From the IMG/VR virus record IMGVR_UViG_3300037067_007163, positions 7,496-71,495 of that record: a stretch of DNA of 64,000 nucleotides; one strand, 5' to 3'. The notes beneath the pieces were generated by a model. The model was not told the origin of the DNA, ran no database searches, and was given only the letters and a program-made list of their open reading frames with translations. This DNA comes from a virus. Its lineage: Duplodnaviria; Caudoviricetes. Shown here piece by piece: positions 3-11,611 of the stretch; positions within the stretch are counted from its first letter, which is position 1; every line of letters starts with the position of its first letter. A program made the position numbers and the translations under genes.

Positions 3-3000
3 AACATTTATTCTGAACAAGTTGGTGGAAATGTTAAACCTGCTTACCTTAAAATAGAAAATCCAGCAGATGGTAATAAGTTGTTGACTAGAGAAGCACA
101 ATCACTAGGACATGATGGTGTGATTAAACAACTTGATAGTGGGGAAAAAGTGTACATTGTTTTTGATTCCAATCAAATTAAGTCAGCCACTGGTAACAAG
201 GGTACATTCAATCCTAAAGATCCAATCATTACTCATTCAGCTAACACTCAAGTATGTAGTGCAGATTGTCACGTTCACAACTCAAATGGTCGTGTGCACA
301 ATGCAAAGGCAAAGCAACCACGTCGTACATTTAATAAGAAACCAGTACAACGTAAGTTAAGCAACAAGAAGTCACCTACAAGAATAGACCCCACTCGATT
401 GGCTACGTTGCGTAGAGTGTGGACTACTGACTTAAAACGTAGGTTCAAGAGCATTGATAAGGCATTGTACCAATTGTTAGTAGTAGATGATGCTTTTGGA
501 ATCAACGGCAATAAGGTATTCAATGTATTCTGTGCAACGGGAGAAGGTGGTGGAGTAGATCCAAGCTGTTCACCTAATGATAGTGGGGGTAAGTTGGAGC
601 ACTACGAGCAAACAATGCAGGGGGAGTTCTGGCTACAAGGTTCAACTGCTATATCAGCCGATGGTGACGTTGATGACATGAATCACGAAGGTCATGCTAT
701 TCAGCAGGCACAGTACGATGTGGCCAATGCTTTTGGTATAGAGCATGAGGAGGATTGGGATAAGACAAAAGAAGAGATTCATGGGAAGCTAATTGAGGAC
801 CGCCCCGAACTACAAAAGTCATTGGACTGGATTGATCAGTACGGTGCCCCATCAAACCCCGAGCAAGAAGCAGTGGTCAAACCCTTCTATGATCATCTCA
901 AAGAAGTTGGGTTGACCCCTGAGGACTGGGAAGTAGCCAACGGCAATGGTAACCAAGACTCTCGCATTTGGGCAGCGGATAAACACGACTGGGTGAGGGT
1001 GGCAGGCAACAGCATTCAAACGGTTGGTATTGATAGCTTGAAGATGAGTGAAATTGCTGATGGTCTTTGGGATGCTTATGGTGATGATGTAGAGCAACAA
1101 TCATTTGATGTTGAAGTCATAGCTAAGGACTCTGTTGGCAAGGGTAAGAATATCTACACCAAACTCTACCGCGACGTGCCCTACCATACCATCGCTGGTA
1201 GTTCTGTCAATGCTTTGCGTGATTACGTGACCAACGCTACGGAAAATTATGACGTGGAGAAAGAGGTAGAGAGGGCAGCTAAGGAGACGGATAGAAACCC
1301 CTCAGAGGCTCAGCGTAAGGCGGGTACATATAGAAAGGGCAAGGTGTGGGTACAGGGGTTAGAGGTTGCTATAGAGTCGCCTAGAGGGTCTACGAGGAGT
1401 GGTATAGGGGCTGACGGTAAGCCTTGGTCTACTACCATGCAGCACCACTATGGTTACATTAAGCTGACAGAGTCAGAAGCAGACGGAGACCACATTGACT
1501 GCTTCCTTGGTCCAAACCCTTCCTCTGATAAGGTATTCATTGTTGATCAAACAAAAGGGCCTGACTTCAAAGAGTTTGATGAACACAAGACTCTAATTGG
1601 TTGGGACAATGTAGAAGAAGCCAAGCAAGCATACCATGACAACTTCAGTGAAGGTTGGCAAGGATTTAGTGACATCACTGAGATGACAATGCAGGAGTTC
1701 AAACAGTGGCTTAAAGAAGGCGATAGCAGTAAGCCAGTAGCAAATGCCTTCTGTCCAACAGGTAGAGGTAACGGGCAAGACAACTCTTGTAGTCCATCTG
1801 GTTTGCCGTTCAATCCAGCAGAAGCAGAGAAGACAGCTGGGCGATGGAAAGATCTTTCCAAAGGGGAAGTGGTCTATCTTAGCAAAGCAATTACTGGGAA
1901 ACCAGAACGGTACTATCTGAAAGTAAAGGTTAGCAAAACCTCTGAGGGTGAAATTGAGGGTATCATACAACAACCCTATGTTTTGGATAAATACCACAAG
2001 TTTGATAAGGGGGAGATGGTTCGGTTCTTTGGGAACGAGGTGGTTCATGTTGAGAGTCGTACAGAAGCACCCAAAGTAAAAGAGTACAAAGCAGAAAAGA
2101 GTGAGATCCCAAAGGACAGCCATACTGGAATGTGGCTCTCAGCTTGGGTGATGGGACAAACGAACCAGGTCACTCCTGCTGTAGCTAAGGCACTTTCTAA
2201 ATACACCTCTGACAAACCAGTGACCCTTTACCGAGGAATTAACACAACCTCTCCGAACCTAGGTCCGACTAAGATGCCAACAAGTTGGAGCTTATCTAAA
2301 AAGTCAGCTGCTTCATTCGGTCGGGGAACACATATGCACCCTAATCCAACTGAAGGGAGGTTGCTCAGCCAGGAGTTTAAGCCTTCTGAGATACTTGTAG
2401 ATTTGAACCACCCACAGGTGAAGGCTTATCTGCATGAGCTGGAGTACGAAGGTGAAAAAGAAGTTATTGTTAAGCCCAAAGTAAGTTTCAAAAGTTCGAA
2501 AGTGACAAAACTCACTGTTAATCAGCTCACTGCAACCTCGAACCAAAAGATGGAACGAATAACAAAGTCCCACTGGTCCAACTATGCATTGAACCAAAAG
2601 CTTCTGCAGTTGGCTAAACAAGGGGGTACGTTGGTAGTAAACTCTTCTTACTTCGCTGAGTGTGAACGTGATGAGAAGGGTCATTGTTTACCATCTGGTG
2701 AAGTAGGTGATAAGTCTAACAGTGAAGAAAGCAAAACACCAGAGTCTAGTAAGGAAGAATCAAGTGCTGGTAAGTTTGACAGAGCAAAGTGGCAAGGTAG
2801 ACGAGAGGAATGGGGTAAGTTACCAGTTGGTCAAAGAGACAACTTAGCAGATGCAGAGAACAGTGTCAAGAGTAGAGTCAGTGAGTTGCTGAAGGGGGTG
2901 CCAGAAAGACCTAATACTGGTGACTTGAGCAAAGACTTAGAAACTAGGATTGGTCAGTTATCAGATCGTGTACATCCACAGGCTGCTGACCGTATGAAGA

Positions 3001-5921
3001 CTGTTGTTAGGGATTACACTAACTTGATGAATGAAGCTGGAGTAAAACCAGAACATCAACATGCACTAGCAATGGAAGCAGTGGACCACCTAGCTGCACA
3101 AGAGTCAGAGACAATGTCTCGTCAATTAGGTGATCACGGTGTAGCACACATCAAAGGTGACATTGATGTAGCAATGCAAACCTTAAATGCCTTACCTACA
3201 AAATCCACAGCACAAGATAAGTTAGCAGCATACACTGCTTGCATCTACCACGACACAGGCTACTTAACTGAGCCCAGTCGTTCTTTCTTAGATGAAGGGC
3301 ACCCACGTTGGAGTGAGCAGTACTACAACACCAATATAAAGCCTACAGTTGCTAAGGCATTGGGTGATCGTGCTGCTAACGAAGTCAGCCACATCATTCG
3401 TACTCATGATGCTACGGACATGGATTGGAACAGCGATAGTGTAGCCTCTTCTGTTCGATTGGCAGATAACCTGGCTGTGTTCCATCGTGAGAAGTTGCCG
3501 CCTGTATTTCGTTATGTCAATGGTAACATTGATGTGCTCAAAGACTTAGGTGCTGGCAAGATCGATAAAGCAACTGCGAATGAACGAATGGTTGCCAACA
3601 TTGACAAGTCTAATCTCACAGATAAGGTCAAGTCACAACTTCGATTGGGTGCTAAAGAGGTTTCAGAGTACACACCCAAGGTAACACTAGGCATGCTTGG
3701 TGGTACATTGACGGGTATCAAGTACAAAGAGGGAACAGTTGTAGCTGAGGTCAAAGAAAGCAAGAAGGCTACGGAGATCAATAAGTTGGGCGACTTTGGT
3801 CAAAATCAATTGGCAAAGTTGGCTAAGACATTTGATGCTGATCCCAAGCAGTTCCAGAAAGACTTGAACTTCACTTTCAAGGGCAAAGACGGTCGCACTC
3901 GTCTTCGCATTGAGATGCAAAAGGCAGTCGAAAACATATTGCTGAATGCTGGTGAAAGATTCCATTTTCAAACTTCACCAGAGCAAGTCAATTCTTTTCG
4001 TCAGTGGATAGCAAAGATTCTAAAGCAATATGTCTTAGATGAAGAAGTCAGTGCAGAAGATCAGTGGTTTCAACAGTACGTTGAGGAAGGATATCGTCGT
4101 GGCGCAAGTCGTGCATTCGATGACACAAGGCCAGCAGTAAAGAAGTGGTTACAATCAGAAGAAGCCAATAAGAAATTAGACTTCTATGACGGTACACGAG
4201 CAGACTTCTTACGATCCTCCTTTGCTAGACCAGTCAGTGTTGAGAAGGTTAAGCTATTGGCAGGTCGCAGCTTCACAGATCTTAAAGGCATCAGTGATCA
4301 GATGAGTGCTAAGCTCACTCGTGGTCTCACAGATGGTTTAGTACAAGGCAAGAACAGCAAGCAAATTTACAAGGACTTAGCCAAAGACGTTGGTATTAGT
4401 GAAAGCAGGGCCAGAGCTATTGCACAAACAGAGCTAACTCGTGCACATGCATCGGGCCAGATCCAGAGTTTCAAAGACTTAGGTGTAACAAAACTAGGTG
4501 TCATGGCAGAAATAGCAACAGCACAGGATGACAGAGTTTGTGAGGCTTGCAATGACTTGAATGGTGTAGTCTTAACAGTTGATGAAGCTGAAGGAATTTT
4601 ACCTGTTCATACCTCATGTCGTTGTGCTCTCATTCCAGCTAATGTCGGGGAAGATGAAGAAGACCAAGTGCGCAGCAAGTTAGGTATCGAGAAAGCCATT
4701 GATGCTGCTACCGAAGTGCTCGGGGGTAGTGACAAGACTACATGGCCTGGAGCAGATGTTAGTATCAGTAAGACAAGACCACAAGGTATTTTCAACTCAC
4801 GTGAAGTATTGTTCAACCAACAACAAGAAATCATCATTGAGCGATTAGACCAACTGATTGATTTAGCTAACAACGCCTTATCACTAAAGGAAGATGATTC
4901 TGTAGTCAACAACACAGAACCTGTTGTGGTAGAATCTACTGTTTTGTCAAATAAAATTGTAGACTTAGTAAATGATTCTGGAACTACAGTTGACAACCGT
5001 TCCTTCTTCGCAGAATGTGATCGGGACGAGAAGGGTCGCTGTCTACCTGGTGATCCTGTAGATGGTTTGAAGAAAGAGCACCCAGAGTTTGCAGAGCACA
5101 AGTTCAATTACGTGCCGAGCCTAGGAGAAACGATTGCTAGGTACGAGCCAAATGGAACGATCACTGTGACTGATACTTTCTTTGGTCATGGTAAAGAAGA
5201 CCAACGGCAGATACTGGCACATGAGGTCGGGCATGGGCAAGTAGCTAGTCTAACAACTCCAGAGCACGCTGAGGAGTATTGGAAGTTGGTTGACTCTGAT
5301 GTGTTAGGTAAGTACGACGAAGAGAAGCAACGGTTCGTTGGATTGCATGGGCAGCGTAATGCCGATGAAGTCTTGGCTGATTTGGCAGCTGACTACTACC
5401 TTGACCCTGACAAGCTGAAGGAGCGATACCCAGTTCAATATCCGATTATCAAGAAAATTCTAACTGAGAACAGGTCTTTCTTCGCTGAATGTCAGAGGGA
5501 TGAACATGGTCGTTGTTTGCCAGAGGGAAGTAGTGGTAGTAAGAGCCAATTGGCCACAAGAACATATAAACCTAGCACAGCAGAGAAACAACGTAAGGGT
5601 GAAGCAGAGCAGTTGTTACTGGCTAAGGCAATTAAGGGTGTCAATACCGATGACAATCAACCGTTTGATATAATCAAAGGAAAGAATGGCATTGAAGTCA
5701 AAACTTTAATGGATAACAACAACGATAAAATAACCGTTCACCCTGAGAGTAGAATTAGAAAAGAGAAAGAAGCAAAGAAACTAAACCTAGACATGCATAC
5801 GGTTGCAATAGATACTCGTGCTGGGCGTAAGGTATACTATTACAAGGCTGGTGTTGGTGCTTTTCGTATTTCCAGCATGCAACGGGTTTCGCTCTCCCAA
5901 CTCAAAGAAATGCTATCATGA
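3..5921 (+). CDS. Giant MuF/SPP1 gp7-like head morphogenesis polyprotein with multiple enzyme domains (5' truncated)
   Basis: Frame is open from nt 3 (NIYSEQVGGNVKPAYLKIENP...), so the true start is upstream of the window. MuF core RAIAQTELTRAH...DDRVCEACNDLNG...PVHTSCRC at ~4400-4640. Also ART-PolyVal-like end (AYLKIENP/GHDGVI/VFDSNQIKSATGN), inorganic pyrophosphatase-like (DGDHIDCFLG...FDEHK), ART (LYRG/SWS/EKEV), HD (YHDTG), zincin (HEVGH) and C-terminal PD-(D/E)xK (PFD...IEVK). Confidence 0.85.
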   Translation, partial: NIYSEQVGGNVKPAYLKIENPADGNKLLTREAQSLGHDGVIKQLDSGEKVYIVFDSNQIKSATGNKGTFNPKDPIITHSANTQVCSADCHVHNSNGRVHNAKAKQPRRTFNKKPVQRKLSNKKSPTRIDPTRLATLRRVWTTDLKRRFKSIDKALYQLLVVDDAFGINGNKVFNVFCATGEGGGVDPSCSPNDSGGKLEHYEQTMQGEFWLQGSTAISADGDVDDMNHEGHAIQQAQYDVANAFGIEHEEDWDKTKEEIHGKLIEDRPELQKSLDWIDQYGAPSNPEQEAVVKPFYDHLKEVGLTPEDWEVANGNGNQDSRIWAADKHDWVRVAGNSIQTVGIDSLKMSEIADGLWDAYGDDVEQQSFDVEVIAKDSVGKGKNIYTKLYRDVPYHTIAGSSVNALRDYVTNATENYDVEKEVERAAKETDRNPSEAQRKAGTYRKGKVWVQGLEVAIESPRGSTRSGIGADGKPWSTTMQHHYGYIKLTESEADGDHIDCFLGPNPSSDKVFIVDQTKGPDFKEFDEHKTLIGWDNVEEAKQAYHDNFSEGWQGFSDITEMTMQEFKQWLKEGDSSKPVANAFCPTGRGNGQDNSCSPSGLPFNPAEAEKTAGRWKDLSKGEVVYLSKAITGKPERYYLKVKVSKTSEGEIEGIIQQPYVLDKYHKFDKGEMVRFFGNEVVHVESRTEAPKVKEYKAEKSEIPKDSHTGMWLSAWVMGQTNQVTPAVAKALSKYTSDKPVTLYRGINTTSPNLGPTKMPTSWSLSKKSAASFGRGTHMHPNPTEGRLLSQEFKPSEILVDLNHPQVKAYLHELEYEGEKEVIVKPKVSFKSSKVTKLTVNQLTATSNQKMERITKSHWSNYALNQKLLQLAKQGGTLVVNSSYFAECERDEKGHCLPSGEVGDKSNSEESKTPESSKEESSAGKFDRAKWQGRREEWGKLPVGQRDNLADAENSVKSRVSELLKGVPERPNTGDLSKDLETRIGQLSDRVHPQAADRMKTVVRDYTNLMNEAGVKPEHQHALAMEAVDHLAAQESETMSRQLGDHGVAHIKGDIDVAMQTLNALPTKSTAQDKLAAYTACIYHDTGYLTEPSRSFLDEGHPRWSEQYYNTNIKPTVAKALGDRAANEVSHIIRTHDATDMDWNSDSVASSVRLADNLAVFHREKLPPVFRYVNGNIDVLKDLGAGKIDKATANERMVANIDKSNLTDKVKSQLRLGAKEVSEYTPKVTLGMLGGTLTGIKYKEGTVVAEVKESKKATEINKLGDFGQNQLAKLAKTFDADPKQFQKDLNFTFKGKDGRTRLRIEMQKAVENILLNAGERFHFQTSPEQVNSFRQWIAKILKQYVLDEEVSAEDQWFQQYVEEGYRRGASRAFDDTRPAVKKWLQSEEANKKLDFYDGTRADFLRSSFARPVSVEKVKLLAGRSFTDLKGISDQMSAKLTRGLTDGLVQGKNSKQIYKDLAKDVGISESRARAIAQTELTRAHASGQIQSFKDLGVTKLGVMAEIATAQDDRVCEACNDLNGVVLTVDEAEGILPVHTSCRCALIPANVGEDEEDQVRSKLGIEKAIDAATEVLGGSDKTTWPGADVSISKTRPQGIFNSREVLFNQQQEIIIERLDQLIDLANNALSLKEDDSVVNNTEPVVVESTVLSNKIVDLVNDSGTTVDNRSFFAECDRDEKGRCLPGDPVDGLKKEHPEFAEHKFNYVPSLGETIARYEPNGTITVTDTFFGHGKEDQRQILAHEVGHGQVASLTTPEHAEEYWKLVDSDVLGKYDEEKQRFVGLHGQRNADEVLADLAADYYLDPDKLKERYPVQYPIIKKILTENRSFFAECQRDEHGRCLPEGSSGSKSQLATRTYKPSTAEKQRKGEAEQLLLAKAIKGVNTDDNQPFDIIKGKNGIEVKTLMDNNNDKITVHPESRIRKEKEAKKLNLDMHTVAIDTRAGRKVYYYKAGVGAFRISSMQRVSLSQLKEMLS

Positions 5922-6043
5922 CTAAATTAGAACTGTTAGATGCAATTACGGAACTTGCTGAGGAGAAAGCAATTTTAGATGCCAAGCTAGCTTTCCTACA
6001 AAACGAGTTGGACGAAGGTAATTACGAAGAGGATCAGTCATGA
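5918..6043 (+). CDS. Small acidic protein (41 aa), candidate immunity/accessory
   Basis: Not in ORF track. MTKLELLDAITELAEEKAILDAKLAFLQNELDEGNYEEDQS, with ATGA overlaps at both ends. Confidence 0.6.
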   Translation: MTKLELLDAITELAEEKAILDAKLAFLQNELDEGNYEEDQS

Positions 6044-6366
6044 GCTATTGGCTGGAAGACGCAGACGGCAAGTATCTTGGTGACTTAGCTACCAACGTAG
6101 GAATCAACCAACTACGTGATGCTGGTAGTCCTGCACTCAAGACATTTTTAGACCAAGGGTTTGCTGATGAAGACTTAATTGAGGAAATGGTCAATGAGTC
6201 TCTCAACAATCCAAAGTTATCTTACATTGCAGCAATGTTTGACGAAGTGAAAGCACCTGTCTATGTAACAGACGGTTGCGGTCAAGCAGATGAAGTTGAG
6301 AACAAATCAAAACCAATTCTGGCTGAACAACTCAGTCAAATAATCAATCGAAAGGAAGTACAATGA
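6040..6366 (+). CDS. Acidic hypothetical protein, candidate immunity protein for the MuF C-terminal nuclease
   Basis: 108 aa, D/E-rich, translationally coupled downstream of the toxin-like domain; the role is inferred from position. Confidence 0.5.
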   Translation: MSYWLEDADGKYLGDLATNVGINQLRDAGSPALKTFLDQGFADEDLIEEMVNESLNNPKLSYIAAMFDEVKAPVYVTDGCGQADEVENKSKPILAEQLSQIINRKEVQ

Positions 6367-6842
6367 CAAAGTTAAAAGTACAAGAGAAGAATACCCAAGT
6401 GTTAAGCCTATTGCAAGCAGCAGTGAATGGTGAAACTACTTCACGCAACCTATACTTTGCTCGTGCTGTGTTTTGGGATAGCATTGGATTTCACAAGCTG
6501 GCAGAATACTATGAGAAGCAAAGCCAAGAGGATCATTGTCAGCTAAGTGCTGACCGCATGGCTTTCTTAGGAGAGCAGCCAGCCTTTAGCCCTTCTCCAG
6601 TACAGTCATTGACAGAAGAGTCTATTGCAGAACAGTACCTAATTGATTTGCAAGTGGAAGTGGCTTTGGCTGAGAATTACACCGAGAGCATTAAGACTGC
6701 TGAGACTCTTGGTGATTACATCACTGCTCAAATTTGGAAGGGTGTACTACAATCAACCCAAGAGCACTGTGATTATCTTCAACAGGAATTGAAGAAAATT
6801 GAACTTGTTGGTGAGCAGAATTACCTTACTGCATGGGTGTAA
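6363..6842 (+). CDS. bfr: Bacterioferritin-like (ferritin superfamily) protein
   Basis: Aligns by eye with Bfr along its whole length: NGETTSRNLY, GFHKL, DRMAFLGEQP, DLQVE, GDYIT, EHCDYLQQELKKIELVGEQNYL. Confidence 0.85.
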   Translation: MTKLKVQEKNTQVLSLLQAAVNGETTSRNLYFARAVFWDSIGFHKLAEYYEKQSQEDHCQLSADRMAFLGEQPAFSPSPVQSLTEESIAEQYLIDLQVEVALAENYTESIKTAETLGDYITAQIWKGVLQSTQEHCDYLQQELKKIELVGEQNYLTAWV

Positions 6843-6875
6843 ATTTCAATTGTTTCCTACGAAGAAGAATCAGTT

Positions 6876-7160
6876 ATGATTGCAGGAGCAAGTACCTTGG
6901 AAACGCCAAAAGTGAGACTGTCACCAATCCAACAAAGGATGCTACAGGTATTGAGTGATGGCTTACCTCATAGCAGGGAAGCAATGCTAGAGTGCCTTCA
7001 GGATGACCAGTGCAGTCAGACAGGTCATTTGGCTCACTTGACTGCCATTCGTAAGGTATTACGCCCAAAAGGTGAGGATGTGCTTTGTGAGTACCGACAG
7101 CGGCGTCCTTTCTACAGACACGTTCGTCTTTTACCATCTGCATATGACGGGTATCAGTGA
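6876..7160 (+). CDS. Hypothetical protein, possible winged-helix
   Basis: LSPIQQRMLQVLSDG...HLTAIRKVLR pattern; coupled to the next gene. Confidence 0.45.
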   Translation: MIAGASTLETPKVRLSPIQQRMLQVLSDGLPHSREAMLECLQDDQCSQTGHLAHLTAIRKVLRPKGEDVLCEYRQRRPFYRHVRLLPSAYDGYQ

Positions 7161-7576
7161 TGAAAAGAACTTATCAGCAAATCTGCTCCATGACTGAAGA
7201 ACAGCTTAGAGCACTGTCAAAGAAGAGCAGACGAACTGCTATTCGGGTATTGTACAGTAGGGCAGTAAGTAAGCATAACAAAGTTACCTACATTCAGACA
7301 CTGCAATTTTCTAATCAACCTAAGATAAGCAGGCACATTCGCAAAAAGCGTAAACACAGCCGCAAGTACGAAGACTATTTGAAATCAAAGCATTGGAAAT
7401 CCTTCCGAAAGCAGGTCATCAAAGAATCGGGAGACCAATGTGAGATGTGTTTAATCGTTCTTCATCGGGGGTTACAAGTGCATCATCTCCACTACCTGAC
7501 TTTGGGCAATGAATCTCGTGGGGACGTAAAAGTGCTTTGTAGAACCTGCCATAGCAACCTGCATGCTAAATACTGA
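7157..7576 (+). CDS. HNH endonuclease
   Basis: CEMC...LQVHHLHY...LCRTCH motifs. Confidence 0.85.
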   Translation: MMKRTYQQICSMTEEQLRALSKKSRRTAIRVLYSRAVSKHNKVTYIQTLQFSNQPKISRHIRKKRKHSRKYEDYLKSKHWKSFRKQVIKESGDQCEMCLIVLHRGLQVHHLHYLTLGNESRGDVKVLCRTCHSNLHAKY

Positions 7577-7666
7577 TGGGTCGATTATCTAAAGTATTTA
7601 GATTCTGTCGTTCTGACAACTTTTCTACTTTACTCTTCTCAAGAGATAATTTAAGTTGTCAGGTGT

Positions 7667-9718
7667 ATGGAGCACCTGACAGTCAATATCTCTGGTAAAG
7701 TCAGGCAGGTCAACGAGGGTGGTAAGTCATTCCTCGTTGCCCCGCTTTCTTTAATTGTCCCTGGAGTCCTATCTGGATCCAAGGGGCCATTGCTCTACGA
7801 GCCTTCTGAGATAGCTAAGAATCATCAACAGTGGAATGGTATGCCATTGTTGGTTTATCATCCCCACGACCCCATTACTAATCAGCCTCTATCAGCCCAA
7901 GATCCTGATCAAGGGCCTTCTATCATAGAGAAACAAGGGGTGGGTGAAGTTCGCAATACCCATGTAAAACATGGAAAGTTGCGAGCAGAAGGTTGGTTTG
8001 ACGTAGAGAAGACCACGAAGGTTGACCCTCGTATCTTGGCGGATCTTAAAGCCAACCGTCCTTGTGAACTATCGACAGGTTTGTTCACGGACAACGAGGA
8101 TACTCCGGGCAACTTTCGTGGTCGTCCTTACACCCAAAAAGCAAGGAACTATCGCGCAGACCACGTGGCCATACTGCCCGACCAAATTGGAGCCTGCAGT
8201 ATTAAAGATGGATGTGGAGTTTTGGTAAACAAAGCATCCTCTTCACTGCAAGAGAAGATTCATCTGCTAGCAAATTCTTCTTTGGTAATCAATCCTGATT
8301 GGGTTGAAGATCATGACATTTGGGAAAAGGCAAAGAATGCAGCTGATAAGAGTGACTATGACGATGACAGTTACTATGCTGTTGTAACCAGCATCTACAA
8401 GAATATGGGTGGTGGCATTAAGGAGAGCAAGATGACCAAGAATGAAAAACTACACATCCTTGCTAACGAGAACCCTAACCGTGACGAGTTGGGTAGGTTT
8501 GCTAGTGGTTCCGGTGGCGGTAGTAAGGGTAGTGGCAAGGGTAGTGCAAAGGTTCACGGTGCAGCCAAGGGTGGTCATCAGAGTTGGGCCAATGACGTTC
8601 ATACAATAAATCAAGGAACTCATAACATGTCTTCTACCCTTCAAGATAAGTTGGCCGGTATTCTGGGTTCAGTTGAGAATGCTGATGTAAAAGAAGACAA
8701 CAGTGTCACTAAGTTGAAGCAAGCTGATGGCCCTAAAACAACACTTGCACCCGTTGGATCTAGTGAACAGGAAACAGAACTAAGACTGCGAGATGGTGGC
8801 GAAGTTGGGTCAGATGAAATAGATACAGAAGACCATGACATGATTGAGAAAGGTGCTGAGTCACCGTTGAAGGCTGATGCTACAGCACTAGGAGCAGAAG
8901 AGATCAAACCGAAACCATTTAAGAAACCCGAGCAGAGTAATGCTCAAACACATAACCAAGAAGAAGGAGGCCACACGATGGCTACTGTGACTTTGAACGC
9001 GGAAGAGCGAGAGGCTGTCGTAAACGGTCTCATTGAAGGTGAGTGCTGCTTCGAGGAGAGTGAGCGTGCTGTGCTCAACTCCTTGAGTGATCGCACTCTT
9101 GCACGTCTAACCTTGAATGCTAAGGAAATGCCGAAGTTCATTCAAGACAAGATTGATGCCAAGAAGGCAAAGGAAGATTCTGCCATGGAAGAAGCAGACT
9201 CTGAGGATGAAGACGAAGAAGAGGAAGTCGAAAACGAAGATCAGAAGACTGAGGAAAAGGATCGAGCTGGTCTTGGTGTACGTGCTGGTAAGGGCACTGG
9301 CAAGAACGAATCTCAAGCCCAAGGCAATGTGAAGCCTTGCGGTGAGTTGAATCCGAAGATGCCTACGGATAATCAGCTCAGTGCTGACGATCGTCAATTC
9401 TTGGCCATTGGCCGTAAGGTAGTCTCTGATCGTCGATCCGACATGATCAAGACCATTACTGCCAACAGTCGCAATCCTTTTGATAAGAAGGAACTTGCCA
9501 GCATGGAATTTAACCAATTGGAAAAGCTTAGCCAATTGGCTGCTGTGGAAAGTGAAGCAGTTGTTCCTTCCTTCACTCTCAATCGCTTCAGTGGGTTCAT
9601 GGGTGCTGCTGCTGGCGTTGGCCAGGTTAACAATGACAGTGGTGTGGACGATGACGTCTTGGAAACTCCAACAATCAACTACAGCGAGATTGCTTCGAAG
9701 GGAATTCAAAAACGATAG
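7667..9718 (+). CDS. DUF2213-type prohead protease/scaffold fusion
   Basis: N-terminal ELSTG...NYRADHVAILPDQIGAC domain, long acidic scaffold-like C-terminus, located just before decoration and capsid genes. Confidence 0.75.
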   Translation: MEHLTVNISGKVRQVNEGGKSFLVAPLSLIVPGVLSGSKGPLLYEPSEIAKNHQQWNGMPLLVYHPHDPITNQPLSAQDPDQGPSIIEKQGVGEVRNTHVKHGKLRAEGWFDVEKTTKVDPRILADLKANRPCELSTGLFTDNEDTPGNFRGRPYTQKARNYRADHVAILPDQIGACSIKDGCGVLVNKASSSLQEKIHLLANSSLVINPDWVEDHDIWEKAKNAADKSDYDDDSYYAVVTSIYKNMGGGIKESKMTKNEKLHILANENPNRDELGRFASGSGGGSKGSGKGSAKVHGAAKGGHQSWANDVHTINQGTHNMSSTLQDKLAGILGSVENADVKEDNSVTKLKQADGPKTTLAPVGSSEQETELRLRDGGEVGSDEIDTEDHDMIEKGAESPLKADATALGAEEIKPKPFKKPEQSNAQTHNQEEGGHTMATVTLNAEEREAVVNGLIEGECCFEESERAVLNSLSDRTLARLTLNAKEMPKFIQDKIDAKKAKEDSAMEEADSEDEDEEEEVENEDQKTEEKDRAGLGVRAGKGTGKNESQAQGNVKPCGELNPKMPTDNQLSADDRQFLAIGRKVVSDRRSDMIKTITANSRNPFDKKELASMEFNQLEKLSQLAAVESEAVVPSFTLNRFSGFMGAAAGVGQVNNDSGVDDDVLETPTINYSEIASKGIQKR

Positions 9719-9787
9719 CAATTGATTGGTTTCAATTGCTTTGTAACTTAAACTTGAAACTGAATTTTTGATAAGGGAGAATTTGAG

Positions 9788-10273
9788 ATGGCAAAAGGCA
9801 ACGAAATCATTGTGAGCGCAGACCCCAAGGGTGTATTCCTTGAGGGGACTGTGTATGGTACGCCGAAGCCTGGCACCGTGATGCAGGTTCGAGCAACAGC
9901 CTTGATTGGTGGGCGTCCTGTGTGGGAAGCCTATAACGTGACTGGTGATGGATACCCTGGCATTATTGCTGTATTGCTGCCTGACCAATTGCAAGGCAGC
10001 TTAGCCACTACTGCTTATGTCACTGGTACCCACTGCTTCCTGTATTGCCCGATCGCTGGTGAAGAGCTGAATATGCTCGTAGCTGACGTTTCTGGTACGG
10101 GCACTAGTGGTAGTGAAGCTAAGGCTATTGGTGACATCTTGATGGTAGATGATACCACTGGCAAGTTGGTGGATGACAGTTCTGGCTTGAGGAAGCCTTT
10201 TGTACTGTTGGAAACTCAAGCAGAGCCTATCTCAGCAGATGCTCTGTTGCACTGCATGTACACTGGTCAATAG
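9788..10273 (+). CDS. Head decoration/cement protein (putative)
   Basis: 161 aa between scaffold and MCP; strong SD (GGGAG). Confidence 0.6.
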   Translation: MAKGNEIIVSADPKGVFLEGTVYGTPKPGTVMQVRATALIGGRPVWEAYNVTGDGYPGIIAVLLPDQLQGSLATTAYVTGTHCFLYCPIAGEELNMLVADVSGTGTSGSEAKAIGDILMVDDTTGKLVDDSSGLRKPFVLLETQAEPISADALLHCMYTGQ

Positions 10274-10351
10274 CCAGTTAACAATCAAACAAGACGATTT
10301 TTGAAATTACCTTGGCTCCGGCCAAATTAACTAAGAGAAGGAGAATTCTGA

Positions 10352-11611
10352 ATGTTCACAGATTTTATCGAGAATGGACGAGCGACCGGAGCCGTCGCAA
10401 CCCACATCATGGGTGGCAATGTTCCTGGTGGCTATGACAAGGGTTATGATCGCCCTTACATCAATCGCAAGGGTCAACGGGCTGTCACGATCAACACTGG
10501 TAAGATGGTGTTGAACGAGAAAGGCACGTATGTTCCTGAGAAGCGTGAAGTGTTGATCAGCAACCTGTTGGAACAGGGTATTTACAATCCTGTGTTCAAT
10601 GCCACTTCTCTTCGCAAGGAAGAGTGGATTAGCTTGGACCAAGTAGTGCTGCGTGAGGCTCGTCTTCGCCTTCGGGCATGGGCTGACCTCTCCGCAGCGA
10701 GTAGCTACGGCGGTTTCAACGGCATGGCTAAGAGCATGCTGGAGCATGAGACCATGAGTGATCCCGGCGAAGCCTTGGTCGACATGGACGGTTTGACCCA
10801 AGGTCATACGGATAGCCCGACGTTCCAACTGCAGGGTATTCCGTTGCCGATTACCCACTCGGACTTCTGGTACTCTTCGCGTCGGTTGGCGGAGTCTCGT
10901 AATACGGGTACTCCGTTGGATACGACGATGGGTGAGGCTGCTGGTCGTCGTGTTGCGGAAATGATTGAGCAGACCCTCATTGGCACCACTACGGGCATGA
11001 CCTATGGTGGCACGATGACTCAGTATGGTGGTTACGGTTCCGGTCGTAATGGTGACCGTACCTCGACAGTCTATGGGTACACCAATTACCCTGACCGCCA
11101 CACGTTTGCTAACACCACCGCCCCGACCAGCACGAACTGGTCCCCGGAATGGACGCTGAAAGACGTGTTGGCCATGCGTGACCTGTTGCGCAACGGCCGA
11201 TTCTATGGTCCTTACATGCTGTATCACAGCACGGATTGGGATCAGTACCTTGACAGTGATTACTACGCTGTTCGTACCTCTGGTGCCTTGGCTCCTACCC
11301 AGACGTTGCGTGAGCGTTTGATGAAGATTGGCGACGTTCAAGATGTTCGACGTTTGGACTTCTTGGGATCGTCAACCAATCCGTTCAACCTCCTGTTGGT
11401 CCAGATGACTCCCGACGTTTGTCGGGCGATCAATGGTTTGGACCTCACGACGGTTCAGTGGGAATCCGTTGGTGGCATGCGATTGAATTTTAAAGTGATG
11501 GCAATCCAGGTACCACAAATCCGTTCGACTCAAGCGGGCCGTTGTGGGATTTGTCACGCAACCGTAACAGCAGGTACGGATAGCACCTATCCGACTGGCA
11601 CCAATGCCTAA
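10352..11611 (+). CDS. Major capsid protein, HK97 fold, encapsulin/linocin-M18-like
   Basis: LRKEEWISLDQVV, PLPITHSDF, SRRLAESRNTGTPLDTTMGEAAGRRVAEMIE resemble family-1 encapsulin/linocin-like capsids; AAGGAG SD; position in module. Confidence 0.85.
   Translation: MFTDFIENGRATGAVATHIMGGNVPGGYDKGYDRPYINRKGQRAVTINTGKMVLNEKGTYVPEKREVLISNLLEQGIYNPVFNATSLRKEEWISLDQVVLREARLRLRAWADLSAASSYGGFNGMAKSMLEHETMSDPGEALVDMDGLTQGHTDSPTFQLQGIPLPITHSDFWYSSRRLAESRNTGTPLDTTMGEAAGRRVAEMIEQTLIGTTTGMTYGGTMTQYGGYGSGRNGDRTSTVYGYTNYPDRHTFANTTAPTSTNWSPEWTLKDVLAMRDLLRNGRFYGPYMLYHSTDWDQYLDSDYYAVRTSGALAPTQTLRERLMKIGDVQDVRRLDFLGSSTNPFNLLLVQMTPDVCRAINGLDLTTVQWESVGGMRLNFKVMAIQVPQIRSTQAGRCGICHATVTAGTDSTYPTGTNA

Follow-up and report, generated by a model that had tools for sequence, protein, structure and literature searches.

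The head genes at this locus are arranged in the order portal, polyvalent MuF protein, protease/scaffold protein, a 161-residue protein and capsid protein, which places the protease within the head module. The window, i.e., the whole stretch of phage DNA that was analysed, comprises 64,000 nt; the full gene for the polyvalent protein (L085:6091-13416) starts 1405 nt upstream of it. The following features are relevant here (a slash in a sequence, here and below, marks a junction):

3..5921, + strand, polyvalent MuF protein, C-terminal 1972 of 2441 residues (Pfam: ART-PolyVal, InPase, Phage_Mu_F)
522..569, + strand, predicted cut site KVFN174, then Cys-pair tag A (VFCATGEGGGVDPSC)
1743..1790, + strand, predicted cut site PVAN581, then tag A (AFCPTGRGNGQDNSC), at the C-terminal edge of InPase
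2640..2693, + strand, predicted cut site LVVN880, then tag B (SSYFAECERDEKGHCLP)
4995..5048, + strand, predicted cut site TVDN1665, then tag B (RSFFAECDRDEKGRCLP), before the zincin module
5469..5522, + strand, predicted cut site LTEN1823, then tag B (RSFFAECQRDEHGRCLP), before the last module
7667..8230, + strand, DUF2213 protease domain (residues 1-188), ending in the conserved GCGVLVN188
8231..9718, + strand, scaffold tail (residues 189-683), holding 16 [VT]-x-N sites (roughly one every 30 residues)
8420..8434, + strand, candidate nested start in the protease/scaffold frame, read from the sequence (AAGGAG, 6-nt spacer, ATG of Met256)
8465..8521, + strand, ILAN267, then tag C (ENPNRDELGRFASGSGGG), in the scaffold; tag C of relatives is also preceded by phi-x-N
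10352..10600, + strand, capsid-protein leader (residues 1-83), containing the sites TIN48, VLN55 and VFN83
10601..11611, + strand, predicted mature capsid protein (DUF6260, encapsulin-like HK97 fold), with 12 Asn, 0 of them in [VT]-x-N

The polyvalent MuF protein contains ART-PolyVal, InPase, ART-like, HD-like, MuF, zincin (HEVGH) and C-terminal nuclease-like modules and, accordingly, fits the class of proteins in which several unrelated effector domains and a virion-anchoring domain are joined in one polypeptide. Two zincin motifs, HELGH and HEVGH, were identified by eye. The full protein of 2441 residues carries eight tags, all of them preceded by an Asn, and five tag-marked joints lie within the window. 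Among relatives, this Asn, which is located three residues ahead of the first Cys, is invariant in 56 of 56 distinct tag A contexts, and P3 in these contexts is V (16), T (16), L (7), A (6) or I (5), giving V/T in 57%. Tags of types B and C are likewise preceded by Asn. A tag with its Asn is also present inside the portal protein, where cutting would split an essential protein.

An earlier, sequence-only reading of this DNA had proposed that an Asn-specific prohead protease processes the head proteins at recurring hydrophobic-x-x-Asn sites. All 27 tetrapeptides that it listed are found at the positions given for them. As worded, i.e., as [VLIFT]-x-x-N, the rule fails, with 49 of the 156 Asn in the three head proteins matching against 42.7 expected (P=0.15); this literal pattern was rejected, and what is left of it in relatives is a secondary preference at P4 (LxxN, z 6.8; P4 L/I/P). 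Eighteen of the 27 peptides match [VT]-x-N; in the remaining nine the V/T position is taken by L, I or A. V or T is found two residues upstream of Asn at 44/156 Asn in the head proteins vs 74/505 in a comparison set of 35 further proteins of the window (Fisher P=1.5e-4, for a motif chosen post hoc). For the scaffold, the suggested enrichment over non-head proteins is borne out, here and across the clade, after re-registering to (L/I/P)-(V/T)-x-N. Tested ORF by ORF across the 48 ORFs of the window, [VT]-x-N is enriched only in the protease/scaffold protein (19/42 Asn, 4.7 expected, P=2.6e-8) and in the window part of the polyvalent MuF protein (22/94 Asn, 12.2 expected, P=0.004). The scaffold tail alone has 16 of its 31 Asn in the motif (3.3 expected, P=2e-8). 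The whole capsid protein is not enriched (3 sites vs 3.3 expected), and the sites that it does have are confined to its leader of 83 residues. Because the signal repeats in independent data, we conclude that [VT]-x-N, with Leu, Ile or Pro one residue further upstream, is a real signal that is one register off the pattern originally described.

These independent data come from relatives of the protease/scaffold protein. In 65 related proteins, V or T occupies P3 at 867 of 2339 Asn (37%) against a background of 11.5%, an excess that is specific for Asn among the 20 possible P1 residues and amounts to 1.24x in other proteins. Relatives share homology, and pooled counts such as these are not fully independent; among 35 scaffold tails with pairwise identity <35%, 312/916 Asn are in the motif vs 98 expected. 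When all 400 residue pairs were scanned without bias, the top ranks after CxC went to TxN (z 16.3) and VxN (z 14.5), and the 3.2x excess is confined to the offset two residues upstream of Asn, with 0.8-1.3x at other offsets. The extended motif favours L, I or P at P4, and Pro is avoided at P2, P1' and P2'. A DUF2213 gene lies beside a motif-rich scaffold at every related locus; of the loci with little or no excess in the protease ORF, seven encode a motif-rich scaffold in a separate ORF. We also considered an N-glycosylation sequon and rejected it: the motif lies upstream of Asn, and P2' has no clear enrichment of Ser/Thr, with Ser at ~1.6x when the 65 related scaffolds are taken together and 1.1x once redundancy is removed, and Thr under background.

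The capsid protein provides a second view of the motif. In 57 matchable related capsid proteins the junction between leader and mature part reads P-V-x-N/A-T, with V/T at P3 in 55; P1 (N) and P3 (mostly V) are fixed, and P2 is free. Here, N83/A84 lies at nt 10598-10600/10601, in agreement with the original proposal, and from the sequence the mature N-terminus is predicted to be A84 (ATSLRKEEW), encoded from nt 10601. N83 was placed by a profile match to encapsulins, in which the encapsulin-like fold starts at residue ~83, because the capsid-protein model is too poor (pLDDT 57). Across related capsid proteins, motif Asn account for 177/352 Asn in leaders (50%) vs 48/783 in mature parts (6%), and the motif is depleted 2.7-fold in the part that is retained; enrichment in the leader that the sequence-only reading took to be removed is, therefore, confirmed. 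The exchange of Asn for D/K/E that it had envisaged in homologues was not seen, with Asn at 57/57 matched capsid junctions and before 56/56 tags, and [VT]-x-D is not enriched in relatives (0.89x).

The statement that motifs lie at essentially every domain boundary of the MuF protein holds at tag-marked joints, of which the window has five and the full protein eight; the remaining boundaries were drawn by eye, and the objective check covered the tag-marked joints and three clusters of homology break-points. The sequence-only reading placed the motifs in linkers rather than folded domains; 5 of the 22 polyvalent window sites fall inside apparent folded domains, again with boundaries set by eye.

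The protease/scaffold protein's N-terminal domain matches Pfam DUF2213 (PF09979) over residues 54-171 with 27.6 bits, over the gathering threshold of 22. Its predicted structure has a pLDDT of 92, and Foldseek with this model returned T4 gp21 (5jbl) first with a probability of 1.00. In VIA-align, the model matches T4 gp21 with Z 11.8 (rmsd 3.2, 140 residues aligned) and herpesvirus proteases with Z 6-8.3. A sequence search with the protease profile against the PDB gave no meaningful match, and the fold search alone succeeded. H65, E134, S136, D165, H166 and C177 are invariant in an alignment (A2) of 42 sequences. We take the spacing of H65, S136 and H166 to resemble that of the HCMV His63/Ser132/His157 triad, a likeness that concerns spacing. 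As modelled, the DUF2213 domain is a gp21/assemblin-like fold (MEROPS clan SH) with a conserved Ser and His. Three [VT]-x-N (N7, N97 and N143) lie within the folded protease domain, and the motif is thus also present where cutting is unlikely. At the domain-terminal Asn188, P3 is Leu rather than V/T. In the tail, sites near the C-terminus are N639 (FTLN/RF), N656 and N671 (PTIN/YS), and relatives share a conserved C-terminal pattern, ..P[VT]xN..DDILPLP-T-I-N/W, where several relatives have Asp in place of Asn although they retain the Asn motif elsewhere.

Altogether, a DUF2213 prohead protease that cuts after Asn in (Leu/Ile/Pro)-(Val/Thr)-x-Asn is the best explanation for these sequence patterns and, in our view, probably the correct one. 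We infer each of its three parts, namely cleavage at the motif, a scissile bond on the C-terminal side of Asn, and DUF2213 as the cutting enzyme. The core of the sequence-only reading is in this way supported: with the motif re-registered, all computational tests that it proposed speak in its favour except for the D/K/E exchange. We suggest that, in the protease/scaffold protein of 683 residues, the N-terminal DUF2213 domain would be a serine protease of the gp21/assemblin fold that is active inside the prohead. There it would cut its own scaffold tail at intervals of about 30 residues, and the resulting peptides would be of a size that can exit the shell. It would also cut the capsid leader at N83/A84, and probably at N48 and N55, and the polyvalent MuF protein before each of the eight tags, thereby freeing enzyme modules inside the capsid, each of which would keep a tag at its new N-terminus. 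An insertion in the portal protein may be a further substrate.

Several findings could also be accommodated by a motif that is functional without being cut, i.e., a docking or capping element such as a strand end with an Asn cap, by which scaffold, tags and leader would attach to one another, to the shell or to the portal while the polyvalent protein stays whole. The junction Asn is also present in the capsid proteins of the outgroup phages StAshley and Hardycor1 and in one solved encapsulin without known cleavage, so that this Asn could serve as a structural helix cap. A further point against cleavage is that the capsid leader is itself conserved and its residues 40-78 fold at moderate confidence; the leader could be retained in the virion. 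The motifs within the folded protease domain and the portal, and the Asn/Asp alternation at the conserved C-terminal scaffold site, fit such a role too, as does the segment of the DUF2213 protein that remains virion-bound in Pa193 (PMC11456595). However, scaffold sequences that are unrelated would not be expected to repeat a binding motif at ~30-residue intervals, nor would binding account for a 2.7-fold depletion in the retained capsid part when half of the leader Asn are in the motif. Moreover, a free P2 between fixed P3 and P1, with Pro disfavoured nearby, is the substrate pattern of gp21- and assemblin-type proteases. We consider this reading unlikely.

It is less probable still that the sites are cut by the zincin-like modules of the polyvalent protein (HELGH, HEVGH) rather than by DUF2213. 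The protein does carry two such motifs, and autoprocessing by domains of this kind has been proposed (Iyer et al., PMC5512222). However, by a strict regex on 10-kb flanks, HExGH is found in the head module at only 8 of the 37 related loci with at least 9 kb of upstream sequence, and 16 loci carry tags without HExGH, while DUF2213 accompanies the motif-rich scaffold throughout. In addition, the motif is shared by the scaffold and the capsid leader, the classic substrates of prohead proteases. The Asn at the predicted scissile bond is also what self-cleavage via a succinimide would require, i.e., asparagine peptide lyase chemistry as in the maturation of nodavirus, reovirus and picornavirus capsids, with no protease involved, and the N/A capsid junction recalls the nodavirus N/A site. 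Yet the surroundings of the sites vary and are mostly unstructured, P1' varies as well, no conserved fold encloses the sites, and a protease-fold domain with conserved Ser and His is encoded next to them, making this reading very improbable. Finally, the refined motif was defined post hoc from the window, where the earlier pattern was not significant; against chance or a compositional artefact, which we regard as next to inconceivable, stand the 35 non-redundant relatives that repeat the signal, its confinement to one offset and one residue, and the unbiased pair scan from which it emerges.

A cleaving DUF2213 enzyme would share features with several known systems. T4 gp21 cleaves after [LI]-x-E, assemblin cleaves after (V/L)-x-A, and gp21 cuts the scaffold gp22 into small peptides. 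T4 gp21 (MEROPS S77; substrates gp22, gp23 and internal proteins) is also the closest structural match, and the systems have in common a short motif fixed at P3 and P1, many scaffold sites, and, as predicted here, loss of a leader and trimming of packaged proteins. By contrast, the motif here is [VT]-x-Asn rather than [LI]-x-Glu, protease and scaffold form one fused protein, the predicted substrates include a multi-enzyme protein of 2441 residues, and the tag follows the predicted cut whereas the T4 capsid-targeting sequence precedes it. With herpesvirus assemblin (UL26/UL80, MEROPS S21), the DUF2213 protein shares the fold (Z 6-8), the N-terminal fusion to the scaffold, similarly spaced His, Ser and His, a hydrophobic P3, and sites that, like the R and M sites, lie where the protease domain ends and close to the C-terminus of the scaffold; assemblin differs in having Ala at P1 and only two sites per precursor. 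Asparaginyl endopeptidases (legumain, MEROPS C13) are likewise specific for Asn at P1 but are cysteine peptidases of an unrelated caspase-like fold. To our knowledge, prohead proteases of worked-out specificity have Glu (T4, phiKZ and SPN3US), Ala (herpesviruses) or Lys (HK97) at P1.

SPN3US gp245 cleaves after A-x-E, and trimming of the capsid protein, the portal and numerous packaged proteins is the work of this single protease (PMC10052503). It and phiKZ gp175 are alike in that many head and ejection proteins are processed at a repeated three-residue motif, but these jumbo myoviruses have Glu at P1 and encode their ejection proteins separately rather than as one polyprotein. The polyvalent proteins described by Iyer et al. 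in 2017 (PMC5512222) similarly comprise MuF-anchored ART-PolyVal, InPase, zincin and other effectors; processing by embedded zincin peptidases was proposed there, with 0 mentions of cysteines or linkers, whereas the shared Asn motif here suggests processing by the prohead protease. PB1 gp22 (“head maturation protease”) and Pa193 gp24 (“putative scaffolding protein”) are DUF2213 proteins too, and their gene order, i.e., portal, MuF, DUF2213-scaffold, small protein and capsid protein, matches the one here. Unlike in PB1, where 1 of 10 tail Asn is in the motif, the scaffold tail here contains the Asn motif. In single sequences of PB1 and Hardycor1, two more distant DUF2213 phages, we found no excess of [VT]-x-N, [KR]-x-N or R-x-D.

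A cultured outgroup is the Brevundimonas phage StAshley, whose scaffold has [KR]-x-N at 8 of 23 Asn (1.9 expected) and whose capsid junction reads LRTN/AT, so that Asn is kept and the partner residue is now K/R as in the scaffold. The same pattern is seen again in L087. L089, a StAshley-like locus, has no [KR]-x-N excess, and the argument from co-variation, therefore, rests on two of three phages. A broader proposal, to which we give somewhat less than even credence, is that members of this DUF2213 clade are true Asn endopeptidases whose P3 has drifted (V/T here, K/R in StAshley), one enzyme clearing the scaffold, maturing the shell and cutting the 2441-residue polyprotein into up to nine tagged enzymes for injection.

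In the literature searched, we found no prohead protease that cuts after Asn, no cleavage specificity reported for DUF2213 and nothing relevant on the tag sequences. DUF2213 is a widespread family, and a testable cleavage rule would allow mature virion proteins to be predicted in hundreds of uncultured phage genomes. Such a rule would also account for the conversion of giant polyvalent MuF proteins into individual enzymes that are injected, replacing or supplementing the idea of zincin self-processing. If true, the broader proposal would describe a protease-driven system for cargo loading and release, and a new source of Asn-specific proteases on a serine-protease fold, possibly of use in protein engineering. 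The cultured Brevundimonas phages make the Asn rule testable at once.

A nested start for a scaffold-only product, which is established in herpesviruses, is a possibility here. Initiation at Met256 could possibly yield, as read from the sequence, a product beginning MTKNEKLHILAN/ENPNRDELGRF. As a feature of the clade this start was rejected, since a Shine-Dalgarno sequence with ATG right after the protease domain occurs in 8 of 44 relatives, no excess over the remaining ORF. The peptide at the nested start, MTKNEKLHILAN/ENPNRDELGRF, is similar to the N-terminus of the polyvalent protein, MQLHDKLKILAN/TFC.

The best-supported explanation for a short Asn motif that recurs in the head-module proteins is a prohead protease that, judging from sequence patterns, probably cuts after Asn. 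The motif is [VT]-x-N, with Asn at P1, Val or Thr at P3 and the predicted scissile bond (↓) after Asn. The source is an IMG/VR virus record of 71.5 kb, of which bases 7496-71495 form the window. The genes concerned are listed here; L085 denotes the left part of the source record, including sequence upstream of the window.

L085:3209-5608, portal protein (Phage_portal_3), just upstream of the window
L085:6091-13416, full gene of the 2441-residue polyvalent MuF protein (ART-PolyVal, InPase, Phage_Mu_F and zincin motifs); its last 1972 residues lie at window 3-5921, in a frame open at the 5' end
After the polyvalent gene, four small genes, a ferritin-like and an HNH gene among them
Window 7667-9718, 683-residue protease/scaffold protein with an N-terminal DUF2213 domain (residues 1-188) and a scaffold tail
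Window 9788-10273, 161-residue protein
Window 10352-11611, DUF6260 capsid protein of 419 residues, with a predicted leader (residues 1-83)

Gene order is the same in phage PB1, where the DUF2213 gene carries the annotation "head maturation protease". The ferritin-like gene (Pfam Ferritin, E 1.5e-18) and the HNH endonuclease gene, at window 6363-6842 and 7157-7576, lie between the polyvalent and protease genes, and neither protein contains a single [VT]-x-N. Upstream of the portal, the left end of the virus record encodes a sigma-70 family protein (regions 2 and 4; L085:2-805) and a DUF5662 protein (L085:2479-2931).

The sequence-only reading had listed 27 tetrapeptides ending in Asn and proposed a hydrophobic residue three positions before Asn as the recognition rule. 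All 27 peptides are present, and the rule itself shows no excess over chance (49 of 156 Asn vs 42.7 expected, P=0.15). What the peptides share lies at the next position, Val or Thr at P3. This applies to 28% of Asn in the three head proteins, compared with 15% for 35 other proteins of the window (Fisher P=1.5e-4). Among 48 ORFs, only the protease/scaffold protein (19 of 42 Asn vs 4.7 expected, P=2.6e-8) and the polyvalent protein (22 of 94 vs 12.2, P=0.004) are enriched; the scaffold tail alone has 16 of 31 vs 3.3 expected (P=2e-8), and all three [VT]-x-N of the capsid protein fall inside residues 1-83. Thus re-registered, the motif is real. Because it was picked post hoc from the window, further tests were run.

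A capsid-protein search returned more than 2000 relatives, from which 80 related viral loci were taken for comparison. In 65 related protease/scaffold proteins, V/T occupies P3 of 867 of 2339 Asn (37%) vs a V+T background of 11.5%, a 3.2-fold excess, while none of the other 19 residues shows an excess at P1 in these proteins; in the remaining proteins of those loci, the value for Asn is 1.24-fold. In a non-redundant set of tails, stripped of the conserved protease domain and clustered at <35% identity, the 35 representatives have 312 of 916 Asn in the motif vs 98 expected. When all 400 residue pairs were scanned without bias at spacings 1 to 3, TxN (z 16.3) and VxN (z 14.5) ranked behind CxC only, with LxxN weaker (z 6.8). 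The V/T excess occurs solely two residues upstream of Asn, all other offsets giving 0.8-1.3-fold, and therefore is not explicable by local composition. In its extended form the motif is (L/I/P)-(V/T)-x-N, with a bias against Pro at P2, P1' and P2' and a preference for C, W, Y, Q and A at P1'. In seven of the loci with little or no excess in the protease ORF, the scaffold is a separate motif-rich ORF (e.g., 12/27 in L007, 10/21 in L040 and 10/21 in L046). In the same pair scan, the excess of CxC (z 23) and of N-C (z 7.8) is explained by a second small Cys element immediately after [VT]-x-N in scaffolds, which reads VVN↓GLIEGECCF here (window 8990-9080) and VxN↓CDCE, VIN↓CNC or VTN↓GCCW in relatives (scaffold N-termini of L040, L046, L049, L069, L077 and L079).

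In the capsid protein, the predicted cut lies between N83 and A84. The junction reads P-V-x-N↓A-T in the 57 related capsid proteins that could be matched there. All of them have the Asn, 55 have V or T at P3 (mostly V), and P2 varies among at least twelve residues. The motif takes in 177 of 352 leader Asn (50%) vs 48 of 783 (6%) in the mature parts, well under the background of ~15%, with the caveat that the leader is itself conserved. Such a contrast, with the motif common in the part that would be removed and avoided in the part kept, is expected from selection around a protease site. The alignment of the family profile to type 1 encapsulins runs from exactly position 80-83 onward, and so the shell fold begins at the predicted cut. 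Asn is also found at the junction position in one encapsulin and in outgroup capsid proteins, so a single Asn there could be a structural cap.

Three kinds of short tag mark the boundaries in the polyvalent proteins. Tag A, N-x-[FY]-C-x-T-G-x-G-G-G-x-D-x-x-C, occurs in 58 copies (56 distinct contexts) in 29 proteins of the related loci and the window. Every copy has the Asn three positions ahead of the first Cys. At P3, V (16), T (16), L (7), A (6) and I (5) occur, the preference seen in tag-free scaffolds, and the residues next to P3 are variable. An Asn likewise precedes tag B, N-x-S-[YF]-F-A-E-C-x-R-D-x-x-G-x-C, and tag C, N-[YF]-x-P-x-Q-P-R-D-x-x-G-R-W/F. The full 2441-residue protein has eight tags, seven with V or T at P3, and the first comes twelve residues into the protein (MQLHDKLKILAN↓TFC). 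Cross-locus homology starts cluster at tag N393, sites 562-580 and N1780 (full-length numbering). Enrichment across related polyvalent proteins is slight (1.42-fold), so that the linkers "packed with motifs" of the sequence-only reading are overstated; joints are marked, and folded domains look ordinary. By cross-locus homology, MuF-related sequence is split into ~562-643 and ~1780-2070, with about 1100 residues of tagged effector modules between. The scaffold, like MuF, can apparently have cargo modules fused to it. Tag A follows the protease domain in two proteins (from loci L005 and L019), and some relatives have protease/scaffold proteins of 1100-1800 residues (L008:2752-8196, L036:5371-9348, L025:5948-9250).

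The DUF2213 domain is the candidate enzyme. In 42 aligned N-terminal domains, H65, E134, S136, D165, H166 and C177 are invariant, and a conserved GCGVLVN stands at the end. Its AlphaFold model is confident (pLDDT 92); Foldseek returned T4 gp21 first, followed by herpesvirus proteases, and VIA-align gave Z 11.8 for gp21 (rmsd 3.2, 140 residues) and Z 6-8.3 for the herpes proteases. The His-Ser-His spacing presumably resembles that of HCMV protease. T4 gp21 cuts after [LI]-x-E and assemblin after (V/L)-x-A, i.e., P3 and P1 are recognised and P2 is free. The same holds for SPN3US gp245, which recognises A-x-E (PMC10052503). Processing of polyvalent proteins has also been attributed to their embedded zincin peptidases, as proposed by Iyer et al. 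(PMC5512222), and the first module of the polyvalent protein here has a second zincin motif (HELGH; L085:6091-13416). However, by a crude test, HExGH occurs in the upstream head module of only 8 of 37 loci and tags occur without it in 16 loci, whereas the DUF2213 gene adjoins a motif-rich scaffold at every locus. It is simpler to assume a single enzyme for a single motif.

Some observations count against cleavage. At the conserved C-terminal scaffold site (…LPLP-T-I-N↓W), several relatives with the motif intact elsewhere carry Asp in place of Asn; [VT]-x-N occurs inside the folded protease domain (N7, N97, N143); and an insertion in the portal holds a tag A (GAMTFN190↓VFCSTGQGGGIDPSC) followed by a module of ~90 residues. 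The portal has 11 [VT]-x-N vs 4.1 expected, four of them clustered at residues 292-336. The insertion may be cut out of the portal; if it is not, the tag would do something other than mark a cut.

The Asn motif was not seen in the outgroups PB1 and Hardycor1. In the closest cultured relative, Brevundimonas phage vB_BpoS-StAshley (ON529865.1), KxN came first in the unbiased pair scan; its scaffold tail has [KR]-x-N at 8 of 23 Asn vs 1.9 expected (P=3e-4), and LRTN↓AT forms its capsid junction, with Ala42 (ATLLIDEW) as the predicted mature N-terminus. In a metagenomic relative of 60% identity the count is 9 of 33 vs 2.3 expected, again with LRTN at the junction; the pattern is absent in a third relative of this type. 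These counts, thin and found post hoc, suggest that Asn is kept while P3 may shift jointly in scaffold and capsid protein. StAshley, being cultured, offers an experimental system for the Asn rule. Our literature searches found no Asn-specific prohead protease, no account of the tags and no DUF2213 cleavage specificity; the DUF2213 protein of Pa193 has been named a putative scaffolding protein (PMC11456595). A prohead protease cutting after Asn would likely be a new variation on the T4/assemblin theme.

Within the protease/scaffold gene, an in-frame ATG (Met256) follows a strong Shine-Dalgarno sequence (AAGGAG) at a spacing of 6 nt (window 8420-8434). The product would start MTKNEKLHILAN↓ENPNRDELGRF, closely like the polyvalent start. 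Met256 could begin a nested scaffold gene, possibly like those of herpes UL26/UL26.5 and lambda C/Nu3; just 8 of 44 relatives have a Shine-Dalgarno sequence with ATG at that place, no more than expected from the rest of the ORF. Scaffolds that otherwise do not align share a conserved C-terminus, ..Y-[FL]-G-A..P-[VT]-x-N..D-D-[IV]-L-P-L-P-T-I-N↓W plus about 10 residues (window 9581-9718), which is probably the shell-binding end, by analogy with the M-site region of assemblin.
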